Assembly: GCF_000092845.1 (NCBI RefSeq)
Contig: NC_014150.1
Location: 2,043,510 to 2,107,509 of the forward strand
DNA length: 64,000 bases
Source of the DNA: Brachyspira murdochii DSM 12563
GTDB taxonomy: Bacteria; Spirochaetota; Brachyspiria; Brachyspirales; Brachyspiraceae
Direction: 5' to 3'
A program made the position numbers and the translations under genes. Within the stretch, counting starts at the first letter, position 1, and each line of letters begins with the position of its first letter. Shown here piece after piece: positions 2,717 through 56,652 of this stretch. The notes under the pieces were generated by a model. It had not been told where the DNA came from. It did not search any database and was given only the letters and a program-made list of their open reading frames with translations.

Positions 2717-2757
2717 AGCTGGTCTCATTAATTTTAATGGGACTGGCTATTTTTTTA
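2717..2757 (+). terminator. rho-independent terminator of flaB
   Basis: AGCTGGTCTCATTA (loop attt) TAATGGGACTGGCT forms a 14-bp stem including 3 G.U pairs. It is followed by ATTTTTTT. Confidence 0.6.
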
Positions 2758-2771
2758 CAATCTCATTACAT

Positions 2772-3085
2772 CCCCCACCCTTTAAAATCAGATGTTTTTA
2801 TTTTTCATTATAACTTTATTAATATTTAAAAGTTTTGATTATTAAAGACAAGCCCGCCCAAGCGTTTTATAAATTTATTGTTTCACTCACCCGCACGTTT
2901 AATTAAATTTTGAATATTAATAAAATGTGTTTTTTTAATTTGTTTATATTTTATTAATTTAGCTCTGCGTGCGGAGAATAGACTGTAATATTTAAATAAA
3001 GCTAGGGTGTGGGCTTTAAATAACAGATGAAGTTATAAATATATAGTGATTATCAAAATAGCAGTATTAATTATCAACTTTAAAG
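2772..3085. repeat. intergenic GC-box repeat element, copy 1 (an extended version)
   Basis: GC-rich boxes occur in a fixed order within AT-rich DNA: CCCCCACCCTTTAAAA, GCCCGCCCAAGCGTTTTA, CACCCGCACGTTTAATTAAA and CTGCGTGCGGAG. Two further boxes GGTGTGGGCTTTAAAT and TTTAAAGGTGGGCGGGG follow. The last is the inverse of the first box. Confidence 0.5.
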
Positions 3086-3170
3086 GTGGGCGGGGAGTTA
3101 AAATAATATTGAAAAAAATATAAGTTATATTTATACTATTTTAATAAATATAATAAATGAGGGATTTTTT

Positions 3171-3803
3171 ATGACAGTTCAGGAAGAATATTTTCAAAGA
3201 TTATCTTTAGTTTTAAAAGAAAAGTTTAATAAAAAAGGTTTTGCTTTTGATAGTTTCAGCAGTAAGGAAGATGCAAAAAAGTTTGTATTATCTCTTATAA
3301 AAGAGAATGATACTATTACATTTGGCGGAAGCATATCAGTTAATGAAATGGGCATATTAGAAGATTTGAAAGGCTATAAGAATTTTATTGACAGAAATAA
3401 TAAAGAATTAAAAGCAGAAGCAGAGATAAAAGCATTTGCAAGCGATGTTTATTTGTGTTCGGCTAATGCTGTAACAAAAAATGGTGATATTGTATCTACA
3501 GACGGCGGCGGAAACAGAGTTGCTGCTACTATTTATGGACCTAAAAAAGTATTTTTAATTGTTGGAAGAAATAAGGTTTGTAATACTGTAGAAGATGCTG
3601 TAAAAAGAGTAAGAAGTATTGCGGCAGGAGAAAACTCAGTAAGATTTAAAGTAGATAATCCTTGCTGCAAAGGTGATATGATTTGCGATGAGGAAAACTG
3701 CGATATAGAAAATAGATTATGTGCTTATACTATTATAGTTAACAAATGCCATATAAAAGACAGAATACATATAATATTTATAGATGAGGAATTAGGATTT
3801 TAG
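3171..3803 (+). CDS. LUD (DUF162, LutC/YkgG-like) domain protein with a Cys-rich C-terminal tail
   Basis: 210 aa. The core ...ASDVYLCSANAVTKNGDIVSTDGGGNRVAATIYGPKKVFLIVGRNKV... follows the DUF162 pattern. The C-terminus has a C-x-C-x4-C-x6-C-x7-C cluster. No lutA/lutB homologues are adjacent. Confidence 0.5.
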   Translation: MTVQEEYFQRLSLVLKEKFNKKGFAFDSFSSKEDAKKFVLSLIKENDTITFGGSISVNEMGILEDLKGYKNFIDRNNKELKAEAEIKAFASDVYLCSANAVTKNGDIVSTDGGGNRVAATIYGPKKVFLIVGRNKVCNTVEDAVKRVRSIAAGENSVRFKVDNPCCKGDMICDEENCDIENRLCAYTIIVNKCHIKDRIHIIFIDEELGF

Positions 3804-3884
3804 TTTTAAATAAAAAATAAATATAAACTTTTAAAAAAGGCTTACTAATTTAATAGCAAGCCTTTTTATTAAAAATATTATTTT

Positions 3885-6800
3885 TTATTGTCCGTTATTC
3901 ATAGAAGCTAAATACTGCATTATCTGAAGTCTTCTGCTTTCTACATCTTTGTCCAAATTAGCTATAACATCATTAGTTGCTGCTAAAGGCGACATTACTC
4001 TTTTGAAGTCATTATATATATTTAAAGCCTCTATAACTTTGTTTTGTTCTATATATATATGACCTATAGCATATAAGGCAAAAGCACCGTCCTGATTAAG
4101 CTCATTAGTGTATTTAGAATATGTACTTACAGCTTCATCATACATTTTACTGTTGAGATATATATTAGCTAAATCAAATTCAAGTCCTGTTCTTTCGTCT
4201 TTAGTTAAATCTCTCATTTTAAGAGTATCAATTAATGTATTTATAGAACTCGCAGTGTCTCCTATGTTAGCATATAGTATTGATATATCTTTATTAACAG
4301 CTACCATATGCTCTCTTGTTCTTGCTCTTTTTCTAGCCTCTAATTTTGCCCATAGAGTTTCTTCTATATCCTGTCTGTTTTGATATATATAATTAGCATA
4401 AGAAGAATAGCTTTCAAAAGTATCTTCTTTCACAGCCTGAGCTTTAAGATTATCAGCCTGCTGTCTTGTAGTTTTAAGCTGTGCATCTATTCTAGCAATA
4501 AATTGTTTTATCTGCTGATAAGTTTGATTCTGCTCTCTTGCCGCATCTCCCATATCTTTTCCTCTGTGGAAAGTTTTTTCTGCTCTGGTAAGCACATCTT
4601 TGGCTTTATTTAAATACTCTGCCTCTTTATCATAAGGGGTATCTTTTGAGCGTGCCAAATATTCATAAGAAGCAGCTAAGTTAAAATAAGCAGGATAAAT
4701 AAGTTTTTCTAATTTTATAAGCTCTTCAAACATTAAAGCCGCTCTTTCATAATTGCCGTCCATAATAGCCTGATTGCCCACAGCAAAGTATACATTAGAC
4801 ATATCAAAACCTATAGTAAGCATTCTTTCTTCTTCCTGCTTTTTTAAGTCCTGAAACTCTGCTATTTTTTGATTAGCTTCATCTCTTGTAATGCCGTTTT
4901 TAGCAATGTCTCCATTACCCATAAAGCCTAAAAGTTTTTGATACATTTTTATTTTTCTGTTATACATATCTATTTTAGCAAGAGAATATGAACTTACAAA
5001 TATCTCTCTTGTTAAGAAATCATAATGAGAAATCTCTTCAGCAGTTCCCTGCATAGTATAGCTGTTCCAGTAATCTTCTTCCGTTTTAAACTCTGGGAAA
5101 GGAAGCTCATACATTTTTACGAAAGTTATCTCTTCGTTTCCGTCATAAATATTTTTTCTTGCTGCTGAAATTAAGCCTTCATCTAATAATGCATTTAAAT
5201 CTGCTGCTATTTTTTCATTCTCATAATCTCTTTTTAAATGCTCTTTAGCAATATCTTTATAGTCATTAACAGTAAGTACCTTAAAGAACTCTAATTCATC
5301 AACTAAAGCATATTTAATAGGCTGAACTTTGAATACTAAACCATAAGCCTTGAAGTAGTAATCACCAAGCCTGTAAAGTCCGTCTCGTCTCCAAGCCATA
5401 TAATAAGGTCTGCCAGACTCTATAAAGTCTTTATCAACGGCATCGCTTATATCTCCTAGCCATCTGCCGTCTGTTTTCATAAGGTTTCCGTATATTCTTT
5501 CAAATACATTACCCTTTTGGTCATATATTTTTAAATCTGGTCTTCTTCTTTCAACCATAGTGTAATATACAAGTCCGAATACTTGGTTGTCTCCTCCTTC
5601 TGTAGCAAATATTGCATTATCTGGAAGAGAGTTCATCATATTGTATGAATAGTCATGGTTGCTAAAATCTTTTGAGTTATTATTACGGCTTAGATTCATT
5701 ACAAATATAGGAATCATTATTGCAAATATTGCTATAAGTGATATTGCATGATAAGGTTTTAATGTGGTATCTGCACTTTCTTCTTTAGAAGGTTTTAATA
5801 CATTTTTTATATTAGTATTAAAATATTCCATATACCATTGAAAACCAAAGCCTATTATCACAAGCATATATAAAGTTGCTGGAAGGAAGAATACTTCTAC
5901 AAATGATAAAGTTCTAACACTTGGAGGCGGATTAGTATATGCCATAAGTGATACGGCAAAACTTAAAAGCCCAAATACTGAGAATATACCTATAAATTTA
6001 TTTTTCTTAAATATTTGAAATAGTCCCGGTATTAAGAACAGTAATCCTAATACTGTCAATTGAGTTTTGAATATATTTATCAAAGCAGATACTTGTTCTG
6101 GGTGAAGTATGAATGCTGCAGCAACATCGTTTCCAGAAGTACCGTACTGTTTTCTATGTATCATACTAAATAAATAGCTTAAATTTTCCCAGCCTGAAGG
6201 TTCATTTAATTGTCCCCAGTTTAGAGGAGGCAAAGCTCTTGCTCTTATAGGCATGTACGCATATATCATAACGCCTACTGCAAGCATTAAAAGCATTTTA
6301 TAATATGATATTGATATGCCTGTTATAAAATCATTATCATTATTAAATTTATCTATTTTGCACAAGAAATATCTATATACTAAGCACCAAACAACTACTA
6401 AAAATAAAGGCCAGAATACTAAAAACATTCCCTTGTATAGAGTAGGGTAGAATGGAGCTTTAAGATTCTGTATCATATCTGGTCTTAAATAAGAACCGTT
6501 TGCAAGTGCTGTAAATATATCGCTCATTATATTCATATCAGCAAAAGGCTTAAATATTATAGAGAATATTGAATCATTAGAAGCTACCCCCGGAGGAAAA
6601 TATAAATAAGCCTCATAATTCATAATAAATCTATAGTATCCGAAACCGCCTATAAATAATAATACCAAAAATACGAATATTGATATAAAAGAAGTTTCTA
6701 TATGATTAATGTATCTGTCTTTATGAACCAAAAATAAAACTATTGCTATAAACAAAAGCGGAGCAAAAGCAAAAGGTAAAGTTACATGGTGATTTGCAAG

Positions 6801-7622: not shown

Positions 7623-7708
7623 TAATTATTTACCTCTTATTTCATTATATATTCAATAGTTTTCGATTGTTATTGTATTTTGGATATATGCGGCAATGAA
7701 GTTATTTT

Positions 7709-7748
7709 GTACTTTTTCCCGCCGCAAAAAGTACCAAAAAGTGCAAAT
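7709..7748. promoter_or_regulatory. conserved hairpin motif, copy A: 9-bp A/T stem GTACTTTTT/AAAAAGTAC, loop CCCGCCGC, tail CAAAAAGTGCAAAT
   Basis: The palindrome is perfect. A second copy of the same architecture lies at 32603-32643. This copy sits ~90-130 nt upstream of the start codon of the minus-strand gene 3885-7622. Confidence 0.4.
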
Positions 7749-7936: not shown

Positions 7937-8416
7937 ATGAAATTCTTGAAAAAAATAGATATTATATTAATACTCATTATAATTTCTTACATCTTTTATA
8001 ATGATTTGATAAAAAATAATAATAAAAACTTAGAAAACAATATTCATAAATTAAACTATATAGAAAATAACTATATTATAGAAAATAATTATAATACAGA
8101 CTCTGAAATTGAATATCAAAATATAAGAAGAAGAAGATACAGACATGATCTTGACCTTGAAGGGGACAGAGTATTTATTATGTTCACAGGCTCTCTTATT
8201 ATAGGTTTTTTACTTAGTCTTATATTATCATCAAAAAATAAATTCTATAAAAAAGAATTAATACCTGCTAAAATAATACTCATTTTATCTGTTATAATTA
8301 CAGGGATAATTATTTTTATAAACTATGAAAATATAAAAAACATATTGGAGTATTTATCTTTGCCTATAGGCTTTATAATAGGCTTTGTATTGGCAAAATT
8401 AATATTTAAAAAATAA
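7937..8416 (+). CDS. small N-rich membrane protein, paralog family member P1
   Basis: 159 aa with an N-terminal TM anchor, an N/I/E-rich linker, an IRRRRYRHD basic motif and 2-3 C-terminal TM helices. It is paralogous to 12398-12970 (the aligned segment is IRRRWNRDRYHYD). Confidence 0.5.
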   Translation: MKFLKKIDIILILIIISYIFYNDLIKNNNKNLENNIHKLNYIENNYIIENNYNTDSEIEYQNIRRRRYRHDLDLEGDRVFIMFTGSLIIGFLLSLILSSKNKFYKKELIPAKIILILSVIITGIIIFINYENIKNILEYLSLPIGFIIGFVLAKLIFKK

Positions 8417-8448
8417 TATATTTACTTAAATTAAACTTTATTTTAATT

Positions 8449-8650
8449 ACCGCCCTTTAAGATTTGTAAGCCTATTTTTTATTAATAATCTTCATCTATA
8501 TTTAAAAGTTACATTTATAATTTTTAACACCCACCAATTTTTTTTAAATTTATTATTCTATTACCGCACGCAGAATTAAACTAAAAATATATATTTATTT
8601 ATAATTCAAATTTTATCATTCTTTAAATTTCATTTACCGTGTGTTAAATC
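8449..8650. repeat. intergenic GC-box repeat element, copy 2
   Basis: The first ~95 bp (CCGCCCTTTAAGATTTGTAAGCC...TTTAAAAGTTACATTTATAATTTTTAACACCCACC) are roughly 90% identical to 11036-11125, judged by eye. Further boxes are CCGCACGCAGAATTAAAC and CCGTGTGTTAAATC. Confidence 0.6.
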
Positions 8651-10112: not shown

Positions 10113-10964
10113 ATGAAAATAAAGTTACTCTTAACCATCATCATAACTATTTTATTGTTTAATATTCATATTTTATATTCAATGAAGTTTTCTCCTGAAT
10201 TTGGTATATTTATGAATATAGGGGCTTCAAAAATTTTTACTAAAACAGAAGTTGATCAAAATGAATATTCATACCTTGTTGATTTTAGAACTATAAAAGG
10301 GGATATATTTTTAGATTTTGAAGCTATTTTTCAATTAGGTGTAAAAAATAATATTAATAATAATATTGTTACAGGCTTAACTTCCCTTTTAGAAATAGGA
10401 TACAGCCCTTATATAATAAGCACAAAATATGAAGGTGAAAGTGATAGTATATATTATATCTTCACTGATAGAGTTATTCTTTATAGTTTAGTTTTAGGAG
10501 CTTTAGAGAAAATAGTTTTTAACAATTTTTCTATAGGTATAGGAGCAGGTGTATTATTTCCAATATCTGGTTTTGCTGCATCTAATCATCCTAGGAATAT
10601 AATATCAGTAATGCCTAGTGAAAATTTATCAATAATTTCACCATATAATAGTAAATTAGATTATGCATATATAAAAAAGCTATTTAAAGTTCCTGTTGCT
10701 CCCTATATAAAGATAACAGCAGAATATGCATTCAAACCTTATAAAATTGATAATGCTGAAATGGATTTTGTACTTGGAGCATATTTAAGTTATAACTTTG
10801 GTATGCAGTATGATGTTTCTGTATTGAATAGTAATATACCAAAGCAGGGAGATAATGGACTTATCATACCCGGTATATCTAGTAAAGATATGTTCTATAA
10901 ATATGATTATTCCAATTTGGATTTTGGGGTTACATTTGGTGTTTCTTTTAGAGCTTTAGAATAA
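10113..10964 (+). CDS. hypothetical secreted/outer-membrane-like protein, paralog of 47044-47799
   Basis: 283 aa with an N-terminal hydrophobic leader. It shares LFKVPVAPYIKITAEYAF...YNFGMQYDVSVLNSN with FKAPIMPYIKLTVEGFIY...YNFGMQYKTDVVNSN in the other copy. Amphipathic strands alternate, consistent with a beta-barrel. Confidence 0.4.
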   Translation: MKIKLLLTIIITILLFNIHILYSMKFSPEFGIFMNIGASKIFTKTEVDQNEYSYLVDFRTIKGDIFLDFEAIFQLGVKNNINNNIVTGLTSLLEIGYSPYIISTKYEGESDSIYYIFTDRVILYSLVLGALEKIVFNNFSIGIGAGVLFPISGFAASNHPRNIISVMPSENLSIISPYNSKLDYAYIKKLFKVPVAPYIKITAEYAFKPYKIDNAEMDFVLGAYLSYNFGMQYDVSVLNSNIPKQGDNGLIIPGISSKDMFYKYDYSNLDFGVTFGVSFRALE

Positions 10965-11032
10965 TTTGATATTTGATAAAAACCGTTATGATAGTGAATA
11001 TATCATGGCGGTTTTTAATTTTATTCTAATTC

Positions 11033-11236
11033 CCCGCCCTTTAAGATTTGTAATCCTTATTTTTTATTAATAAACTTCATCTACATTTAAAAGTTACATT
11101 TATATTTTTAACGCCCGCCCAAGTGTTTATTAACTTTTGAAACTTACTCAACGCACGTTAAACGCATTACTAAAAAACATCTGAATTATAATACAAAATG
11201 TATTTATTTTTTGGATTCGTTCTGCGTGCGTTAAAT
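11033..11236. repeat. intergenic GC-box repeat element, copy 3
   Basis: Boxes in the same order as the other copies: CCCCGCCCTTTAAGA, CGCCCGCCCAAGTGTTTATT, CAACGCACGTTAAACGC and CTGCGTGCGTTAAATA. Confidence 0.6.
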
Positions 11237-11267
11237 ATATGCTTATTTTAATAATACTTTATAAAAA

Positions 11268-11930
11268 CTATATTGATGATTTTTGTTTTTCCATTTCTTC
11301 ATATTTTTCAAAATCTTTAAGAGCTTCCTTGTTTTTATTCAATTTCTTTTTAATACTTCCTCTTAGAAAATATGCAAATGGATTATCAGGATTGAGTTCT
11401 ATTACTTTATCAATATCTTCCATACCTTTTTTATGCATGTCCAATCCAAATTTAGAAATACCTCTTAAATAGTATGCTTCAGAAAAATTAGCGTCTAATT
11501 CTATAACTTTATTAAAATCTGATATTGCCTCTTCATTCTTATTCAATACTAATTTAGAAAGCCCCCTATGCAGATACGCTTTTACATAATTGGAATCTAA
11601 TTCTATAGCTTTATCAAAATCTTTTAAAGCTTCTATATCCATATTTAACGCTACCATGTTAATACCTCTATAGAAATAGAACTTTGCACAATTTGGATCT
11701 AATTCTATAGCCCTATTGAAATCTTCTAAAGCCTCCTCTTTTTGGCTAAGTAATAATTTAGAAACACCTCTGTATAGGTAGCTTTTTGCATAATTAGGGT
11801 TTAATTCTATAGCCTTATCAAATACCTCTAATGCATTTTTATAGTCTTTATTGTTATAGTATGTAACAGCTTCTTTATAATAATTTTTAAATGATTCGTA
11901 CATAGTTATTTTCTCCGTTAAAATATTCAT
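11268..11930 (-). CDS. TPR repeat protein
   Basis: 220 aa made of six or more 34-residue units of the pattern ALxDFxKAIELxPNxAxAYxxRG. Confidence 0.8.
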   Translation of the reverse strand: MNILTEKITMYESFKNYYKEAVTYYNNKDYKNALEVFDKAIELNPNYAKSYLYRGVSKLLLSQKEEALEDFNRAIELDPNCAKFYFYRGINMVALNMDIEALKDFDKAIELDSNYVKAYLHRGLSKLVLNKNEEAISDFNKVIELDANFSEAYYLRGISKFGLDMHKKGMEDIDKVIELNPDNPFAYFLRGSIKKKLNKNKEALKDFEKYEEMEKQKSSI

Positions 11931-12397
11931 TAATAATTCTTATCCATTTAGAATTTATAACAGTATTTTAAGCTGAAATTTTAATAATTCTTTTACAATA
12001 TTTTTTATTTATTATAGTATAATTATAAGATTAATATTTTATTTATAATAAATCTTATATTATAGACTATTTTTACTTCTTACTTATTGCAATAATATAA
12101 ATTTTTAAATAAAAAATCAACAATAAAAAATATATTAGCCTTAAATTAATAAATAACATTTATAATTTTTTTATTAAAATTTATTTTATCTTTCACTGAT
12201 TCAAAAAAATATTAGTATTTAATTATTAAATATATGCTTATTAAAAAACTTTGGGCAAGTTCTAATAGATGTTAATTAAGATGTAAGTAACAATTTAGAG
12301 TAAAAAAGATATAGGGTGGGGGGGATAATAAAAACTGATTGAAATAAAAATGATTTAAATTTATAATAAATGAAGGATTATTAAAAAGGCATGTATT

Positions 12398-32396: not shown

Positions 32397-32602
32397 AAAC
32401 CTCTCCTTAAAAATTATTATAAAAAATAATAAATGATAATAATATTTTTTGCAAGTTTTTGGTTATATTATAATAGTATTATTTCGTACTATAATTAAGG
32501 CTTGATTAATTATATTTTGATTATTACTGATAAAAAAATATGTATTGTATATATACTGGAACAATTTCATTTTGTCAATTGATGTACATTATATAGAATT
32601 AT

Positions 32603-32643
32603 CAACTTTTTTGCCGCACAAAAAAGTTGCAAAAAACGCAATT
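32603..32643. promoter_or_regulatory. conserved hairpin motif, copy B: 10-bp A/T stem CAACTTTTTT/AAAAAAGTTG, loop GCCGCAC, tail CAAAAAACGCAATT
   Basis: Same architecture as 7709-7748. It lies upstream of a predicted minus-strand promoter (TTGACA-N17-TATATA, about 32545-32580) for the SPFH gene. Confidence 0.4.
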
Positions 32644-32796
32644 ACTAGAACTTTATATTTTAAATATATGTATTAAATGTATGGTAACACCTAAAATTTT
32701 GCTTAAAAATGCAGTTCTTTTGGTTCTTTTATACCAATAAAAGAACTGGGGTGCGGGGCAAAGCCCTGCAAATATTTAAAATTAAAAAAATTAATT

Positions 32797-32825
32797 TTGA
32801 CAAATTATAGTCGTTTAGGTATATA
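32797..32825 (+). promoter_or_regulatory. consensus promoter TTGACA-N17-TATATA inside a 680-bp intergenic region
   Basis: tTTGACAaattatagtcgtttaggTATATAat. It lies ~250 nt upstream of the ATG at 33079. Confidence 0.35.
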
Positions 32826-33078
32826 ATAATAAGATATAAAATTAATGATTGATTATAAAGCAAATATAACATGCTTATTTATAAAAATACGTATTAAAAT
32901 ATAGTAAAATATTTATTGCATTAAGAAAAAAAATACTATATAATTTATTATTGTTTTTAAGGATATAATTCATTTTATGATTGGCAGTGTTTGCTGATTT
33001 GTCTATATTGCTAGTAGAATATAATAATTGTAAAACAATTTTTTAATATAGATTTTTATATTTATTGGAGTCTTTTTT

Positions 33079-53273: not shown

Positions 53274-55355
53274 GTGGCACGTCAAATTTCATTAGAAAAC
53301 ACACGTAATATTGGTATTATGGCTCACATTGATGCTGGTAAGACTACTTTGAGTGAGCGTATTCTTTATTTTACTGGTAAGACACATAAAATAGGTGAAG
53401 TACATGAAGGTGCAGCAGAAATGGACTGGATGGAACAGGAAAGAGAGAGGGGTATTACTATTACTTCGGCTGCAACCACTTGTTTTTGGAATGGTAATAG
53501 AATTAATTTGATAGATACACCGGGGCACGTTGACTTTACTGTAGAGGTTGAAAGATCTTTAAGAGTATTGGATAGTGCAGTTGGTGTTTTTTGTTCTGTA
53601 GGCGGTGTTCAGCCTCAGAGTGAAACAGTATGGAGACAGGCTAGTAATTATAAAATTCCTAGAGCTATATTTGTTAATAAAATGGATAGAATAGGTGCTA
53701 ATTTCTATGCTGTTTTGGATCAGACAAGAGAGAGATTAAAAGCTAATAGTCACCCAGTTGTTATACCTATAGGTGCAGAAAGCAATTTTGAGGGTGTTAT
53801 TGACTTAGTAAATATGAAAGAGATAATTTGGGTTTCTGAAGACGGCATGAAAATGGAAGAGAGAGAAATCAGGGCTGAATTAAAAGAAAAAGCAGAAGAA
53901 TATAGAAACTCATTATTAGAAGCAATTGTTGAATACGATGATGATGCTATGAATAAGTTTTTTGAAGGAGAGGAAATAGATGTTCCTACTATAAAAAGAC
54001 TTATAAGAACAGCAACATTAACTGCAGACTTCTTTCCAATGTTCTGCGGTACTGCATTCAAAAATAAAGGTATTCAGGTATTAATTAATGGAATAGTTGA
54101 TTACTTACCTTCTCCAGTAGACAGATCAGAGATAGAAGGTACTGACTTAGACGGAAATGTGGTAAAAAGAAAAATATCAGATGATGAGAAATTCAGTGCA
54201 TTAGCATTTAAAATAATGACAGACCCTCACGTAGGAAAAATAGCTTTCTTCAGAGTTTATTCTGGTATATTGGAAGCTGGTTCTTATGTGTTTAATGCAA
54301 CAAAAGGTAAAAGAGAGCGTATCGGAAGAATACTTCAGATGCATGCTAATAAAAGAGAAGAGATTGATACAGTATATGCTGGTGATATAGCTGCAGCAGT
54401 AGGACTTAAAGAAACAACAACAGGTGATACTTTATGTCCGGAAAATGCTCCTATAATACTAGAAGCAATCAATTTCCCAGAACCAGTAATTAACGTTGCT
54501 ATAGAGCCTAAAACAAAAGGTGACAGAGATAAAATGTCTATAGCTTTATCAAGACTTGCTGAAGAAGACCCAACATTCAGAGTTAGTTTTGATGAAGAAA
54601 CAGGACAAACAATTATCGCAGGTATGGGTGAGCTTCACTTGGAAATTATCTGTGATAGAATGAAAAGAGAATATAAAGTTGAGGCAAATGTAGGACGTCC
54701 TCAGGTATCTTACAGAGAAGGTATTAAGAAAACAGTTGAGGTTCAAGGAAAATTTGTGCGTCAGTCTGGCGGTAAAGGTCAGTACGGAGATGTATGGCTT
54801 AGAATTGGTCCTAATGAACCTAATGCGGGATTTAAATTTAATAATGAAATCGTTGGAGGAGCAGTTCCAAGAGAATATATACCTGCAGTAGAAAAAGGCT
54901 GTGTAGAGTCAATGAATACAGGAGTTCTTGCTAACTATCCTATGCTTGATGTTGTAGTATCAGCTTATGACGGTTCATTCCACCCAGTAGACTCATCAGA
55001 AATGGCATTTAAAATTGCTGCTTCAATGGGATTTAAAGAAGGCTGTAAAAAGGCAGATCCTTATTTGTTAGAGCCTATGATGACAGTAGAGGTTGTAACT
55101 CCAGAAGATTATATGGGTGATATAATAGGGGACTTAGCTTCAAGAAGAGGTCAGGTTCACGGATTTACAGATAAATCAGGTTATAAATCAATCAATGCTA
55201 CAGTACCTCTTGCAGAGATGTTTGGTTATACAACAAGTATAAGAAACGTATCTCAGGGAAGAGCAAGCTACACAATGCAGTTCTCACACTATGAGGAAGT
55301 ACCTAAAAATGTAGCTGAAGAGATAATCGGTGCTAGAATGGGTAATAACAAATAA
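53274..55355 (+). CDS. fusA: elongation factor G
   Basis: GTG start. Contains [22 protein letters not shown] and a 693-aa length. Confidence 0.95.
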
Positions 55356-55425
55356 GTAACTAAAAAAGTTACAAGTTAGATATAAAAATTAAATTTCCTA
55401 AAGGATAAATAATTGGAGGATTAAA

Positions 55426-56652
55426 ATGGCTAAAGGAACTTACGAAGGTAAAAAGACACACGTAAACGTTGGTACTATCGGACACGTAGACCATGGTAAA
55501 ACAACATTAACATCAGCAATAACAGCAGTATCATCTGCTATGTTCCCAGCAACAGTAGCGAAAGTTGCTTATGACTCAGTAGCAAAGGCTTCTGAAAGTC
55601 AAGGTAGAAGAGACCCAACAAAAATATTGACAATCGCAACATCACACGTTGAATATGAATCAGACAACAGACACTATGCTCACGTAGACTGTCCAGGTCA
55701 CGCTGACTACATTAAAAACATGATTACTGGTGCTGCTCAGATGGACGGTGCTATATTGGTAGTATCAGCAGAAGACGGTGTAATGCCTCAAACAAAAGAA
55801 CACGTACTTCTTTCAAGACAAGTAGGTGTAAATTACATCGTAGTATTCTTAAACAAATGTGATAAATTAGATGACCCAGAAATGGCAGACATCACAGTAG
55901 AAGAAGTAAAAGACGTATTAAATCACTATGGTTTTGACGGCGATAAAACTCCTATCATTAAAGGTTCTGCTATTAAAGCTATTCAAGCAATTGAAGCAGG
56001 TAAAGATCCTAGAACAGATCCAGATTGTAAATGTATATTAGATCTTTTGAATGCTTTAGATACATATATTCCAGATCCAGTACGTGAAGTAGATAAAGAC
56101 TTCTTAATGTCAATCGAAGACGTATACTCAATTCCTGGAAGAGGTACAGTTGTTACTGGAAGAATTGAAAGAGGTAAAATCAAAAAAGGTGATGAAGTTG
56201 AAATCGTTGGTATCAGACCTACTCAAAAAACAACTTGTACTGGCGTAGAAATGTTCAAAAAAGAAGTAGAAGGTATAGCTGGTTATAACGTTGGATGTCT
56301 TTTAAGAGGTATTGAACGTAAAGCAGTAGAAAGAGGACAGGTATTAGCTAAACCAGGTACTATCACACCTCATAAAAAATTCGAAGCAGAAGTTTATATC
56401 TTGAAAAAAGAAGAAGGCGGAAGACACAGCGGTTTCGTAAGCGGTTACAGACCACAAATGTACTTCAGAACAACAGACGTAACAGGTGTAATCAACTTAC
56501 AAGAAGGTTCACAAATGATTATGCCAGGTGATAATGCTAACTTAACTATTGAACTTATCACACCAATCGCTATGGAAGAAAAACAAAGATTCGCTATACG
56601 TGAAGGTGGTAAAACAGTAGGTAATGGTGTTGTAACAAAAATATTAGAATAA
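55426..56652 (+). CDS. tuf: elongation factor Tu
   Basis: [18 protein letters not shown] and a 408-aa length. Confidence 0.95.

Follow-up and report, generated by a model that had tools for sequence, protein, structure and literature searches.

A BIME-like extragenic repeat with conserved GC-rich boxes in the genus Brachyspira

The DNA analysed here, referred to throughout as the window, is a stretch of 64,000 nt from Brachyspira murdochii DSM 12563 (contig NC_014150.1, positions 2,043,510 to 2,107,509). Its G+C content is 28% (21-37% in 2-kb windows), and it is 92-96% identical to loci of B. innocens and about 95% identical to Brachyspira sp. G79. Three of its plus-strand genes, flaB (1827-2690), a gene for a 159-aa membrane protein (7937-8416) and a 283-aa gene (10113-10964), are each followed by a region in which short GC-rich boxes stand in the same order. 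A composite of these boxes, CCCTTTAAR-N62-72-CCCRCCMA-N24-36-CGCACG, matches the window three times, in precisely these three regions, against 0.00 matches expected by chance (none in 100 dinucleotide-preserving shuffles). In the 64 kb there are six occurrences of the heptamer CCCRCCC, where 0.77 would be expected; the three regions account for five of them, and the remaining one (12314-12320) marks the displaced end of the third region. The initial annotation had reported three such ordered series of GC boxes, one downstream of each of these plus-strand genes, and is borne out on both points; its estimate of about 90% identity over 95 bp between copies 2 and 3 was close to the 85.6% over 125 nt that we obtained with blastn.

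The repeating unit consists of about 175 bp of AT-rich DNA in which three GC boxes stand at set distances from one another: box 1 (CCCRCCCTTTAA), box 2 (consensus CCCRCCCAAG(N)TT(N)TTTAAATTT) and box 3 (CGCACG). Boxes 1 and 2 are 78 +/- 2 bp apart, and boxes 2 and 3 are 37-38 bp apart. Primed numbers denote the boxes of an inverted unit.

Copy 1 is a full palindrome. Its left unit (2752-2925, plus strand; positions 10-181 of the nhmmer unit profile, E = 3.6e-26) carries box 1 as CCCACCC at 2774-2780, followed by TTTAA, box 2 as CCCGCCC at 2853-2859, followed by AAG, and box 3 as CGCACG at 2892-2897. The right unit, an inverted tail-to-tail partner (2939-3116, minus strand; profile positions 10-181, E = 1.9e-16), carries box 3' (CGTGCG, 2968-2973), box 2' (GGGTGTGGGC, 3005-3014) and box 1' (GGTGGGCGGGG, 3085-3095). 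The second half of the copy (copy positions 151-294) matches the minus strand of copy 2 at 69.7% identity (blastn), and the reverse complement of 2925-3105 aligns to the other copies with boxes 1, 2 and 3 in register. The two heads of the palindrome are likewise inverted, with 2751-2776 and 3093-3118 being 73% complementary. An extra distal inverse of box 1 noticed earlier in this copy is real, and is box 1' of a full inverted unit, whose inverted box 2 had been missed; the 'box 4' described for all three copies is not a separate box but the box 3 of an inverted unit, whether partial or full.

Copy 2 contains one unit (8431-8590, plus strand; profile positions 13-174, E = 5e-20), with box 1 (CCGCCCTTTAAG) at 8450-8461, a degenerate box 2 (CACCCACCAA) at 8528-8537 and box 3 (CGCACG) at 8565-8570. 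A box 3' with one mismatch, CGTGTG, lies at 8638-8643 on the minus strand, 67 nt past box 3, and is the only remnant of the inverted partner of this copy.

Copy 3 also has one unit on the plus strand (11008-11184; profile positions 7-180, E = 1.1e-29), in which box 1 (CCCGCCCTTTAAG) occupies 11033-11045, box 2 (CCCGCCCAAG) 11114-11123 and box 3 (CGCACG) 11152-11157. Alignment to intact palindromes identifies a minus-strand stretch at 11225-11262 as box 3' (CGTGCG, 11225-11230) together with the spacer that precedes box 2' in intact elements. The rest of the inverted partner, a displaced distal arm at 12226-12336 (minus strand), is recognized from alignment, a direct repeat and CCCACCC on the minus strand, and carries a degenerate box 2' (CTTTGGGCAAG, 12249-12259) and box 1' (GGGTGGG, 12314-12320). 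The two parts are split by an insertion of about 1 kb that holds a TPR gene (11268-11930, minus strand) and is bounded by a 17-nt exact direct repeat of element sequence (11231-11247 and 12226-12242). The orthologues of copy 3 in B. innocens (L097) and Brachyspira sp. G79 (L120) are full palindromes. A search of the window with the unit profile returned four units, none beyond those of copies 1-3.

The repeat is distributed across the genus. When the composite box pattern was scanned over one genome per species for 185,579 species, at least 120 stretches matched, of which at least 107 came from Brachyspira, covering at least 16 genomes; among the matches listed are B. hampsonii, B. intermedia, B. 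innocens, B. alvinipulli, B. pulli, B. pilosicoli, G79 and several MAGs. The other 13 matches listed come from genomes with 42-65% G+C and are chance matches. All nine G79 matches among those listed fall within 1.86-2.54 Mb of a 2.63-Mb scaffold.

With the unit profile, 370 units were found in 846 kb of retrieved loci, forming 174 clusters, none of which overlaps an ORF of at least 100 aa. Units are dispersed across many intergenic sites in every Brachyspira genome sampled, and most of the GC islands in spacers that otherwise have about 20% G+C belong to this repeat family. Spacers between convergent genes are mildly enriched (40 of 133 clusters, against 99 of 552 among all intergenic regions), whereas divergent spacers carry units as often as expected by chance (26/133 against 115/552).

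Neighbouring units are arranged in opposite orientation in 194 of 197 pairs, and the junction distances vary by only about +/- 2 nt: the gap from box 3 to box 3' is 68 +/- 2 bp between tail-to-tail partners, and that from box 1' to box 1 is 34 +/- 2 bp between head-to-head partners. The result is a dyad-symmetric period of 349 bp, repeated 0.5 to 5 times in clusters of one to ten units. Tandem Repeats Finder reports such a period of 349 bp in the array at locus L113 (169-1801; 4.7 copies, 86% matches). The commonest architecture is '1 2 3 3'', the form of copies 2 and 3 (29 of 139 clusters), followed by '1 2 3 3' 2' 1'', the form of copy 1 (19 clusters), and '3 3' 2' 1' 1 2 3 3'' (16 clusters).

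The units also differ in the central purine of boxes 1 and 2, at which A and G are about equally frequent. This position is coupled within a unit (107 AA, 90 GG and 66 mixed) and anti-correlated across inverted partners, G facing A in 45 of 70 tail-to-tail pairs, so that two unit subtypes, with either G or A in both boxes, tend to alternate with orientation. Solitary units are G-type in 28 of 35 cases. In 28-30 of 34 elements, reading the palindrome from its G-type arm places a G.U pair (G.T in DNA) in the middle of the box 1 and box 2 helices, and a C.A mismatch stands at that position on the opposite strand. An asymmetry of this kind is the pattern expected of a strand-specific hairpin of single-stranded DNA or RNA, and is left unaccounted for by a model in which the boxes are read in double-stranded DNA.

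Comparison of orthologous sites revealed that the arrays change in length. Downstream of the 159-aa gene there are one, two or three units depending on the species, and in the alignment of orthologous sites copy 2 joins the head of unit 1 to the tail of unit 3, its second half corresponding to unit 3 of the array in B. alvinipulli. The alignment shows copy 2 to be a longer array shortened by deletion. At the site that follows the LUD-domain gene, whose orthologue in the window is the ORF at 3171-3803, B. pulli has exactly one 349-bp period more than B. intermedia. Rearrangements, too, coincide with the elements. In B. intermedia, B. pulli and MAG O21, the gene corresponding to 10113-10964 lies inverted, together with its element, between flaB and the LUD-domain gene, and the relocated block is flanked by element pairs. 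Brachyspira sp. G79 has a single palindrome in place of the copy 2, two genes, copy 3 and TPR gene of the window. Within the species of the window the arrangement is stable, with eight other assemblies being 98-100% identical. The genes next to units often belong to expanded accessory families (ankyrin, TPR, MCP, PepSY-like and Rpn).

Some of these arrangements hint at gene capture of an integron-like kind, namely the presence of accessory genes (TPR, ankyrin, OMP-like and Rpn) between modules, the occurrence of one gene-plus-element block at two genomic positions in different species, and the gene inside copy 3 that is bounded by the 17-nt duplication of element sequence.

The family is old, and its boxes are much better conserved than the DNA around them. 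The mean pairwise distance between units is 37%, and the box columns are 90-99% conserved, a value inflated by the retrieval of loci through a pattern that demanded intact boxes in one unit. Because the loci had been selected in this way, we repeated the check on 63 bystander units with no pattern match within 1 kb, a control that removes the retrieval bias in part, and their boxes were intact in 84-87%. Many loci are orthologous across species. In 201 putative orthologous unit pairs, defined as reciprocal best hits and so possibly including paralogues, the mismatch was 2.7% at the G/C positions of the boxes, compared with 28% at G/C and 20% at A/T positions outside them. The nearest unit at another locus of the same genome has a median identity of 75%, and identity reaches 90% in just six of 281 units, which are probably one array split by the assembly; there is no sign of a recent burst of copies. 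Conservation of the boxes at fixed spacing, in a genome under strong AT pressure, indicates purifying selection on the boxes and on their geometry. Alternatively, GC-biased gene conversion among the copies could keep the GC boxes without any function for the host.

Our data are best explained by a model in which the elements form an old, genus-wide, BIME-like extragenic mosaic repeat, with GC boxes that are putative, selected protein-recognition sites in DNA rather than parts of a structured RNA. We give this reading a probability of roughly 0.55. The elements look like conserved DNA sites combined with recombination hot spots. Under this model, the boxes would be sequence-specific sites in double-stranded DNA for one or more putative proteins, and purifying selection would maintain the boxes and their spacing while the AT-rich spacers would drift to saturation. 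We infer recognition by protein solely from the conservation of the boxes and of the distances between them. Tandem duplication and unequal recombination at the 349-bp period would lengthen and shorten the arrays, and the dispersed copies would act as substrates for recombination, a portable homology at which accessory genes could be inserted, lost or moved. Original dispersal by transposition in trans is plausible.

Of the alternative explanations, a non-autonomous transposon of the MITE or REPIN kind survives best, although we consider it unlikely. The inverted units would then be long terminal or sub-terminal inverted repeats of a selfish and by now mostly fossil element, and the boxes would bind a transposase supplied in trans. 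The occupation of many intergenic sites in every genome sampled speaks for this, and with more than 100 such sites occupied, past mobility of some kind is implied. The inverted-repeat build, with two CCCRCCC sites in each arm, resembles the multi-site ends of transposons, presence or absence varies by species (L053 is empty where L010, L099 and L116 have one to three units), and the G/A asymmetry would suit strand-specific recognition of folded single-stranded DNA. A miniature mobile element had also been proposed in the initial annotation, and the part of that proposal that stands is a dispersed, multi-copy, inverted-repeat family; target-site duplications, sharp ends, young copies and a transposase were not found. 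Across clusters, the outer ends are spread over profile positions 0-30 and 130-184. Of the approximately eight candidate sites screened, two of which were aligned, none yielded a target-site duplication or a clean empty site, and at the unit-free sites (L053, L048, L116 and L085) the flanks are too diverged or replaced to define junctions. The paralogue identities given above, without young copies, led us to reject recent transposition, and duplication of the 349-bp period accounts better for tandem arrays that alternate so strictly. Nothing similar was found in plasmid and phage collections or in a pattern scan of viral contigs. Neither target-site duplications, sharp ends nor young copies provide any evidence for an active MITE.

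A transposase partner was also sought among the neighbouring genes. The ten largest families of neighbouring ORFs, scanned with Pfam, include no Y1 transposase of the RAYT or IS200/IS605 type. The sole transposase-like neighbours are Rpn-family PD-(D/E)XK 'putative transposase' genes (PF12784, E = 4e-44), which lie precisely between unit heads in five pattern-selected loci (L075, L094, L034, L087 and L117). However, any gene between two tail-to-tail pairs has heads on both sides, so that this flanking is trivial. When nine independent rpn loci were fetched by protein instead (from B. hyodysenteriae, an innocens-like MAG, B. pulli, B. intermedia, B. alvinipulli and G79), none had a unit or box in its flanks. 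We therefore rejected the Rpn/PDDEXK_2 family as the partner transposase, its association with the units being an ascertainment effect.

It is also conceivable, though in our judgement improbable, that the boxes are the cis sites of a putative dedicated DNA-binding or recombination system, which would read one strand of the asymmetric G-type/A-type palindrome and, somewhat in the manner of an integron, use it as a platform for capturing, excising and moving accessory genes. The G/A strand asymmetry could be used by such a single-stranded recognition mechanism.

Structured RNA, with the GC boxes as conserved stems, was the other possibility raised by the initial annotation. The spacers would then be transcribed into a non-coding RNA, which could be an sRNA or a cis-regulatory element in a 3' UTR. 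Boxes 3 and 3', 2 and 2', and 1 and 1' are mutually complementary, an RNA made from one strand only would tolerate the G.U pairs in the middle of the box 1 and box 2 helices, and all three window copies lie downstream of plus-strand genes. The full palindrome of copy 1 also folds better than shuffled sequence (plus strand z = -4.9, minus strand z = -3.2), but copy 3 does so weakly (z = -1.9) and copy 2 folds as its shuffles do (z = -0.02). RNAalifold, applied to 34 non-redundant full palindromes, recovered no helices beyond those of the three boxes, which close loops of 65-80 nt, and the compensatory changes that might have been expected were absent: the covariation term was -0.45 kcal/mol, and of 23 pairs 18 were invariant (six of seven in each of the box 1 and box 2 helices, and six of six in box 3) and one had changed on both sides.

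The spacers between the helices are not complementary. Inverted partner arms are 51-63% alike in every segment, the same as random arms taken from other loci (0.51 for partners against 0.52 for random arms in the spacer between boxes 1 and 2), and because partners are no closer than random arms, the dyad symmetry is inherited from the family consensus and not kept pair by pair. Outside the boxes, there was no strand bias in G.T wobbles (374 against 371 transition mismatches). On the strength of the arm comparison, the wobble count and the RNAalifold result, we rejected the idea that compensatory change preserves a long hairpin of RNA or DNA. The '1 2 3 3'' form, to which copies 2 and 3 belong, keeps boxes 1 and 2 with no pairing partner at all, and solitary units show no preferred orientation relative to their flanking genes (12 co-directional and 12 opposed).

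Searches for known RNAs and for transcription signals agree with this picture. Rfam gave no match in the window at the gathering threshold, and at E <= 1 the L113 array locus yielded only two chance matches far below threshold. Neither promoters nor terminators are enriched inside the window copies. The L113 array has 25 promoter matches against 10.8 expected, which is not independent evidence because the same weak 9-of-12 match recurs in each period. A structured RNA is unsupported because the partner arms are unlike, covariation and Rfam matches are lacking and copy 2 folds like its shuffles, and we regard it as very improbable.

A role as transcription terminators or insulators, in which hairpins of box 1' and box 1 at head-to-head junctions would join T-rich sequence to stop transcription in both directions, receives still less of our credence. 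The units are exclusively intergenic, with the mild enrichment between convergent genes noted above, and the head-to-head junction offers a possible GC-closed stem of about 15 bp followed by TTTAA and T-rich sequence. The window copies, however, have no head-to-head junction, and the canonical terminator hairpins are separate structures ahead of the elements (2705-2760 for flaB and 10977-11017 for the 283-aa gene). A terminator scan found none in the window copies or in the ten-unit L113 array of 4.7 periods, divergent spacers, on the promoter side of genes, carry units as often as chance predicts, and boxes 2 and 3 and the fixed 349-bp architecture would be left unexplained.

Several other candidates can be dealt with briefly. 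An integron attC or gene-cassette array was rejected on account of the gene-free tandem arrays, the occurrence of units in all intergenic contexts and the lack of an integrase among the neighbouring families scanned, and a CRISPR array on account of the alternating repeats, the 349-bp period and 'spacers' that are homologous between periods. Readings of the boxes as KOPS, Chi, DNA uptake sequences, G-quadruplexes or Z-DNA would suit neither the motif nor the palindromic layout. Lastly, although only three loci are involved within 11 kb of the window and its spacers are AT-rich and of low complexity, chance likeness deserves next to no credence in view of the box counts given above, and the decayed remnant of a single old local duplication, a reading that the initial annotation had kept in reserve, is ruled out by the recurrence of the same architecture throughout Brachyspira.

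We found no prior description of the repeat family in the open-access literature, and the genome papers of B. intermedia and B. pilosicoli do not mention it; the family is apparently undescribed. Its copies mark places where species differ by the gain, loss or rearrangement of genes. This property, together with its variable-number behaviour, gives it value for typing strains, finishing assemblies and analysing synteny in Brachyspira pathogens such as B. hyodysenteriae, B. hampsonii and B. pilosicoli.

Several known families of intergenic repeat share features with these elements. The Correia elements of Neisseria are MITEs with defined 26-bp inverted repeats and a TA target duplication. Like them, and like MITEs in general, the Brachyspira repeat is short, non-coding and dispersed, has inverted symmetry and influences the organisation of neighbouring genes, but it differs in that no target duplication or sharp termini were found. 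The modular intergenic repeats of other bacteria include the pneumococcal BOX element (boxA-boxB-boxC) and the enterobacterial ERIC, or IRU, sequences. The resemblance here lies in a length of 100-300 bp, modular conserved boxes in fixed order, an intergenic location, restriction to a genus and suitability as a target for copy-number typing. BOX and ERIC elements, however, are considered to form stable hairpins of RNA or DNA and typically occur singly, and neither forms strictly alternating arrays with a 349-bp period.

REPINs are inverted doublets of REP sequences mobilised by RAYT transposases (PMC3116915, PMC3337134). As in the Brachyspira family, the inverted doublet is a basic form, accompanied by singlets and higher-order clusters, and the location is intergenic. 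REPIN arms are nevertheless kept complementary as a hairpin, in young populations of near-identical sequences, whereas the Brachyspira arms do not co-evolve, the copies are old and no RAYT was seen among the ten largest neighbouring ORF families scanned.

The closest known system is the bacterial interspersed mosaic element (BIME), known from E. coli and further enterobacteria and comprising arrays of REP sequences or palindromic units, although the Brachyspira repeat is outside that family. The proteins that bind BIMEs include IHF, gyrase and Pol I, and the BIME unit subtypes that alternate with orientation are termed Y and Z. BIMEs are described as extragenic, regularly spaced units in alternating orientation that carry protein-binding sites (PMC2817692). 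The differences are considerable. REP units are imperfect palindromes of 20-40 nt that begin with a conserved GTAG-like tetranucleotide. The Brachyspira unit measures about 175 bp against about 35-40 bp for that of a BIME, lacks self-complementarity (one strand carries the C-rich side of both box 1 and box 2) and has no GTAG-type 5' motif in its consensus; only three short GC boxes, set at fixed distances, are conserved; no RAYT lies near the units among the ten largest neighbouring ORF families scanned; and the host is a spirochaete with 27-28% G+C. The likenesses concern the organisation of the whole. In both systems, extragenic, regularly spaced units alternate in orientation, two subtypes exist, head-to-head and tail-to-tail spacers are distinct, and the number of repeats varies between strains or species; the protein-binding sites of BIMEs would have their counterpart in the putative recognition sites of the Brachyspira boxes. 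A BIME-like architecture in a distant phylum, built from a unit five times larger in which constraint acts just on short boxes and their spacing, represents an independent case through which to consider why arrays of alternating orientation arise and which proteins read them.

Genes of the Rpn family (PD-(D/E)XK, PDDEXK_2) were found exactly within the head-to-head junction, the box 1'/box 1 side, of two inverted GC-box units at five loci retrieved via the GC-box pattern (L075 6082-7335; L094 3467-4935; L034; L087; L117). The association is not general, as it was seen at none of nine independent rpn loci, and head-to-head unit junctions may be favoured landing sites for these genes. Several draft contigs terminate within rpn genes, a sign that the gene is multi-copy.

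Amongst rpn paralogues, shared homology begins approximately 35-50 nt 5' of the start codon, including a TTGACA-N17-TATAAT promoter, and stops near the stop codon. At a Brachyspira hyodysenteriae locus (L121), an identical sequence of approximately 45 bp, which includes the terminator hairpin of the upstream gene (AATAATAAAAGGCTTTCTTAAATTAATAAGGAAGCCTTTTTATTTAT), lies on either side of the rpn gene (regions 2885-3000 and 3877-4129). This repeat looks like a long duplication resulting from rpn insertion.

A different gene interrupts copy 3, the GC-box element whose intact unit lies at window 11008-11184. This copy is split between box 3' and box 2' by an insertion of approximately 1 kb (11231-12242 including the flanking repeats), which carries a TPR-repeat gene on the minus strand (11268-11930). 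A perfect 17-nt direct repeat, TTAAATATATGCTTATT, borders the insertion at each end (11231-11247 and 12226-12242). In Brachyspira innocens (L097) the palindrome is uninterrupted. The TPR region has a periodicity of 102 nt (11457-11834). One four-unit array (L018 3600-5600; L115 5200-6440; L036 4100-5340; L040 1000-1900) is adjoined by another, distinct tandem repeat whose period is approximately 102 bp. This repeat was detected because the flanks matched one another in successive steps of 102 bp, and it may, like the periodic TPR sequence of the window, lie inside a repeat-protein gene.

A second family of intergenic repeats, approximately 300 bp long, unrelated to the GC-box units and 71-72 % identical between loci, was represented in the window at 32549-32830 and elsewhere at L127 3922-4243 (immediately downstream of an rpn gene), L043 1325-1677, L060 1133-1446 and L109 1241-1526. 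The family carries the hairpin AACTTTTTTGCCGCACAAAAAAGTT and the GC-rich hairpin GGGGTGCGGGGCAAAGCCCTGC; a small, similar hairpin, GTACTTTTTCCCGCCGCAAAAAGTAC, is located at window 7707-7732.

Members of the GC-box family may be concentrated in particular chromosomal regions. All units of the window fall within the first 12.4 kb of its 64 kb and, among the pattern matches listed, all those on the 2.63 Mb scaffold00008 of Brachyspira sp. G79 (L004, L011, L028, L071, L087, L102, L111 and L120) are confined to 1.86-2.54 Mb. Across the window (1-64000), cumulative GC skew decreases, is lowest at about 26-28 kb and increases thereafter, and genes switch from mainly minus strand at 14-29 kb to mainly plus strand at 42-64 kb; together, these features could indicate that a replication origin lies nearby, or simply reflect operon orientation. 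Within the plus-strand stretch, ORFs of 693 and 408 aa (53274-56652), together with the short ORFs that follow, resemble, in size and order, fusA, tuf and ribosomal-protein genes.
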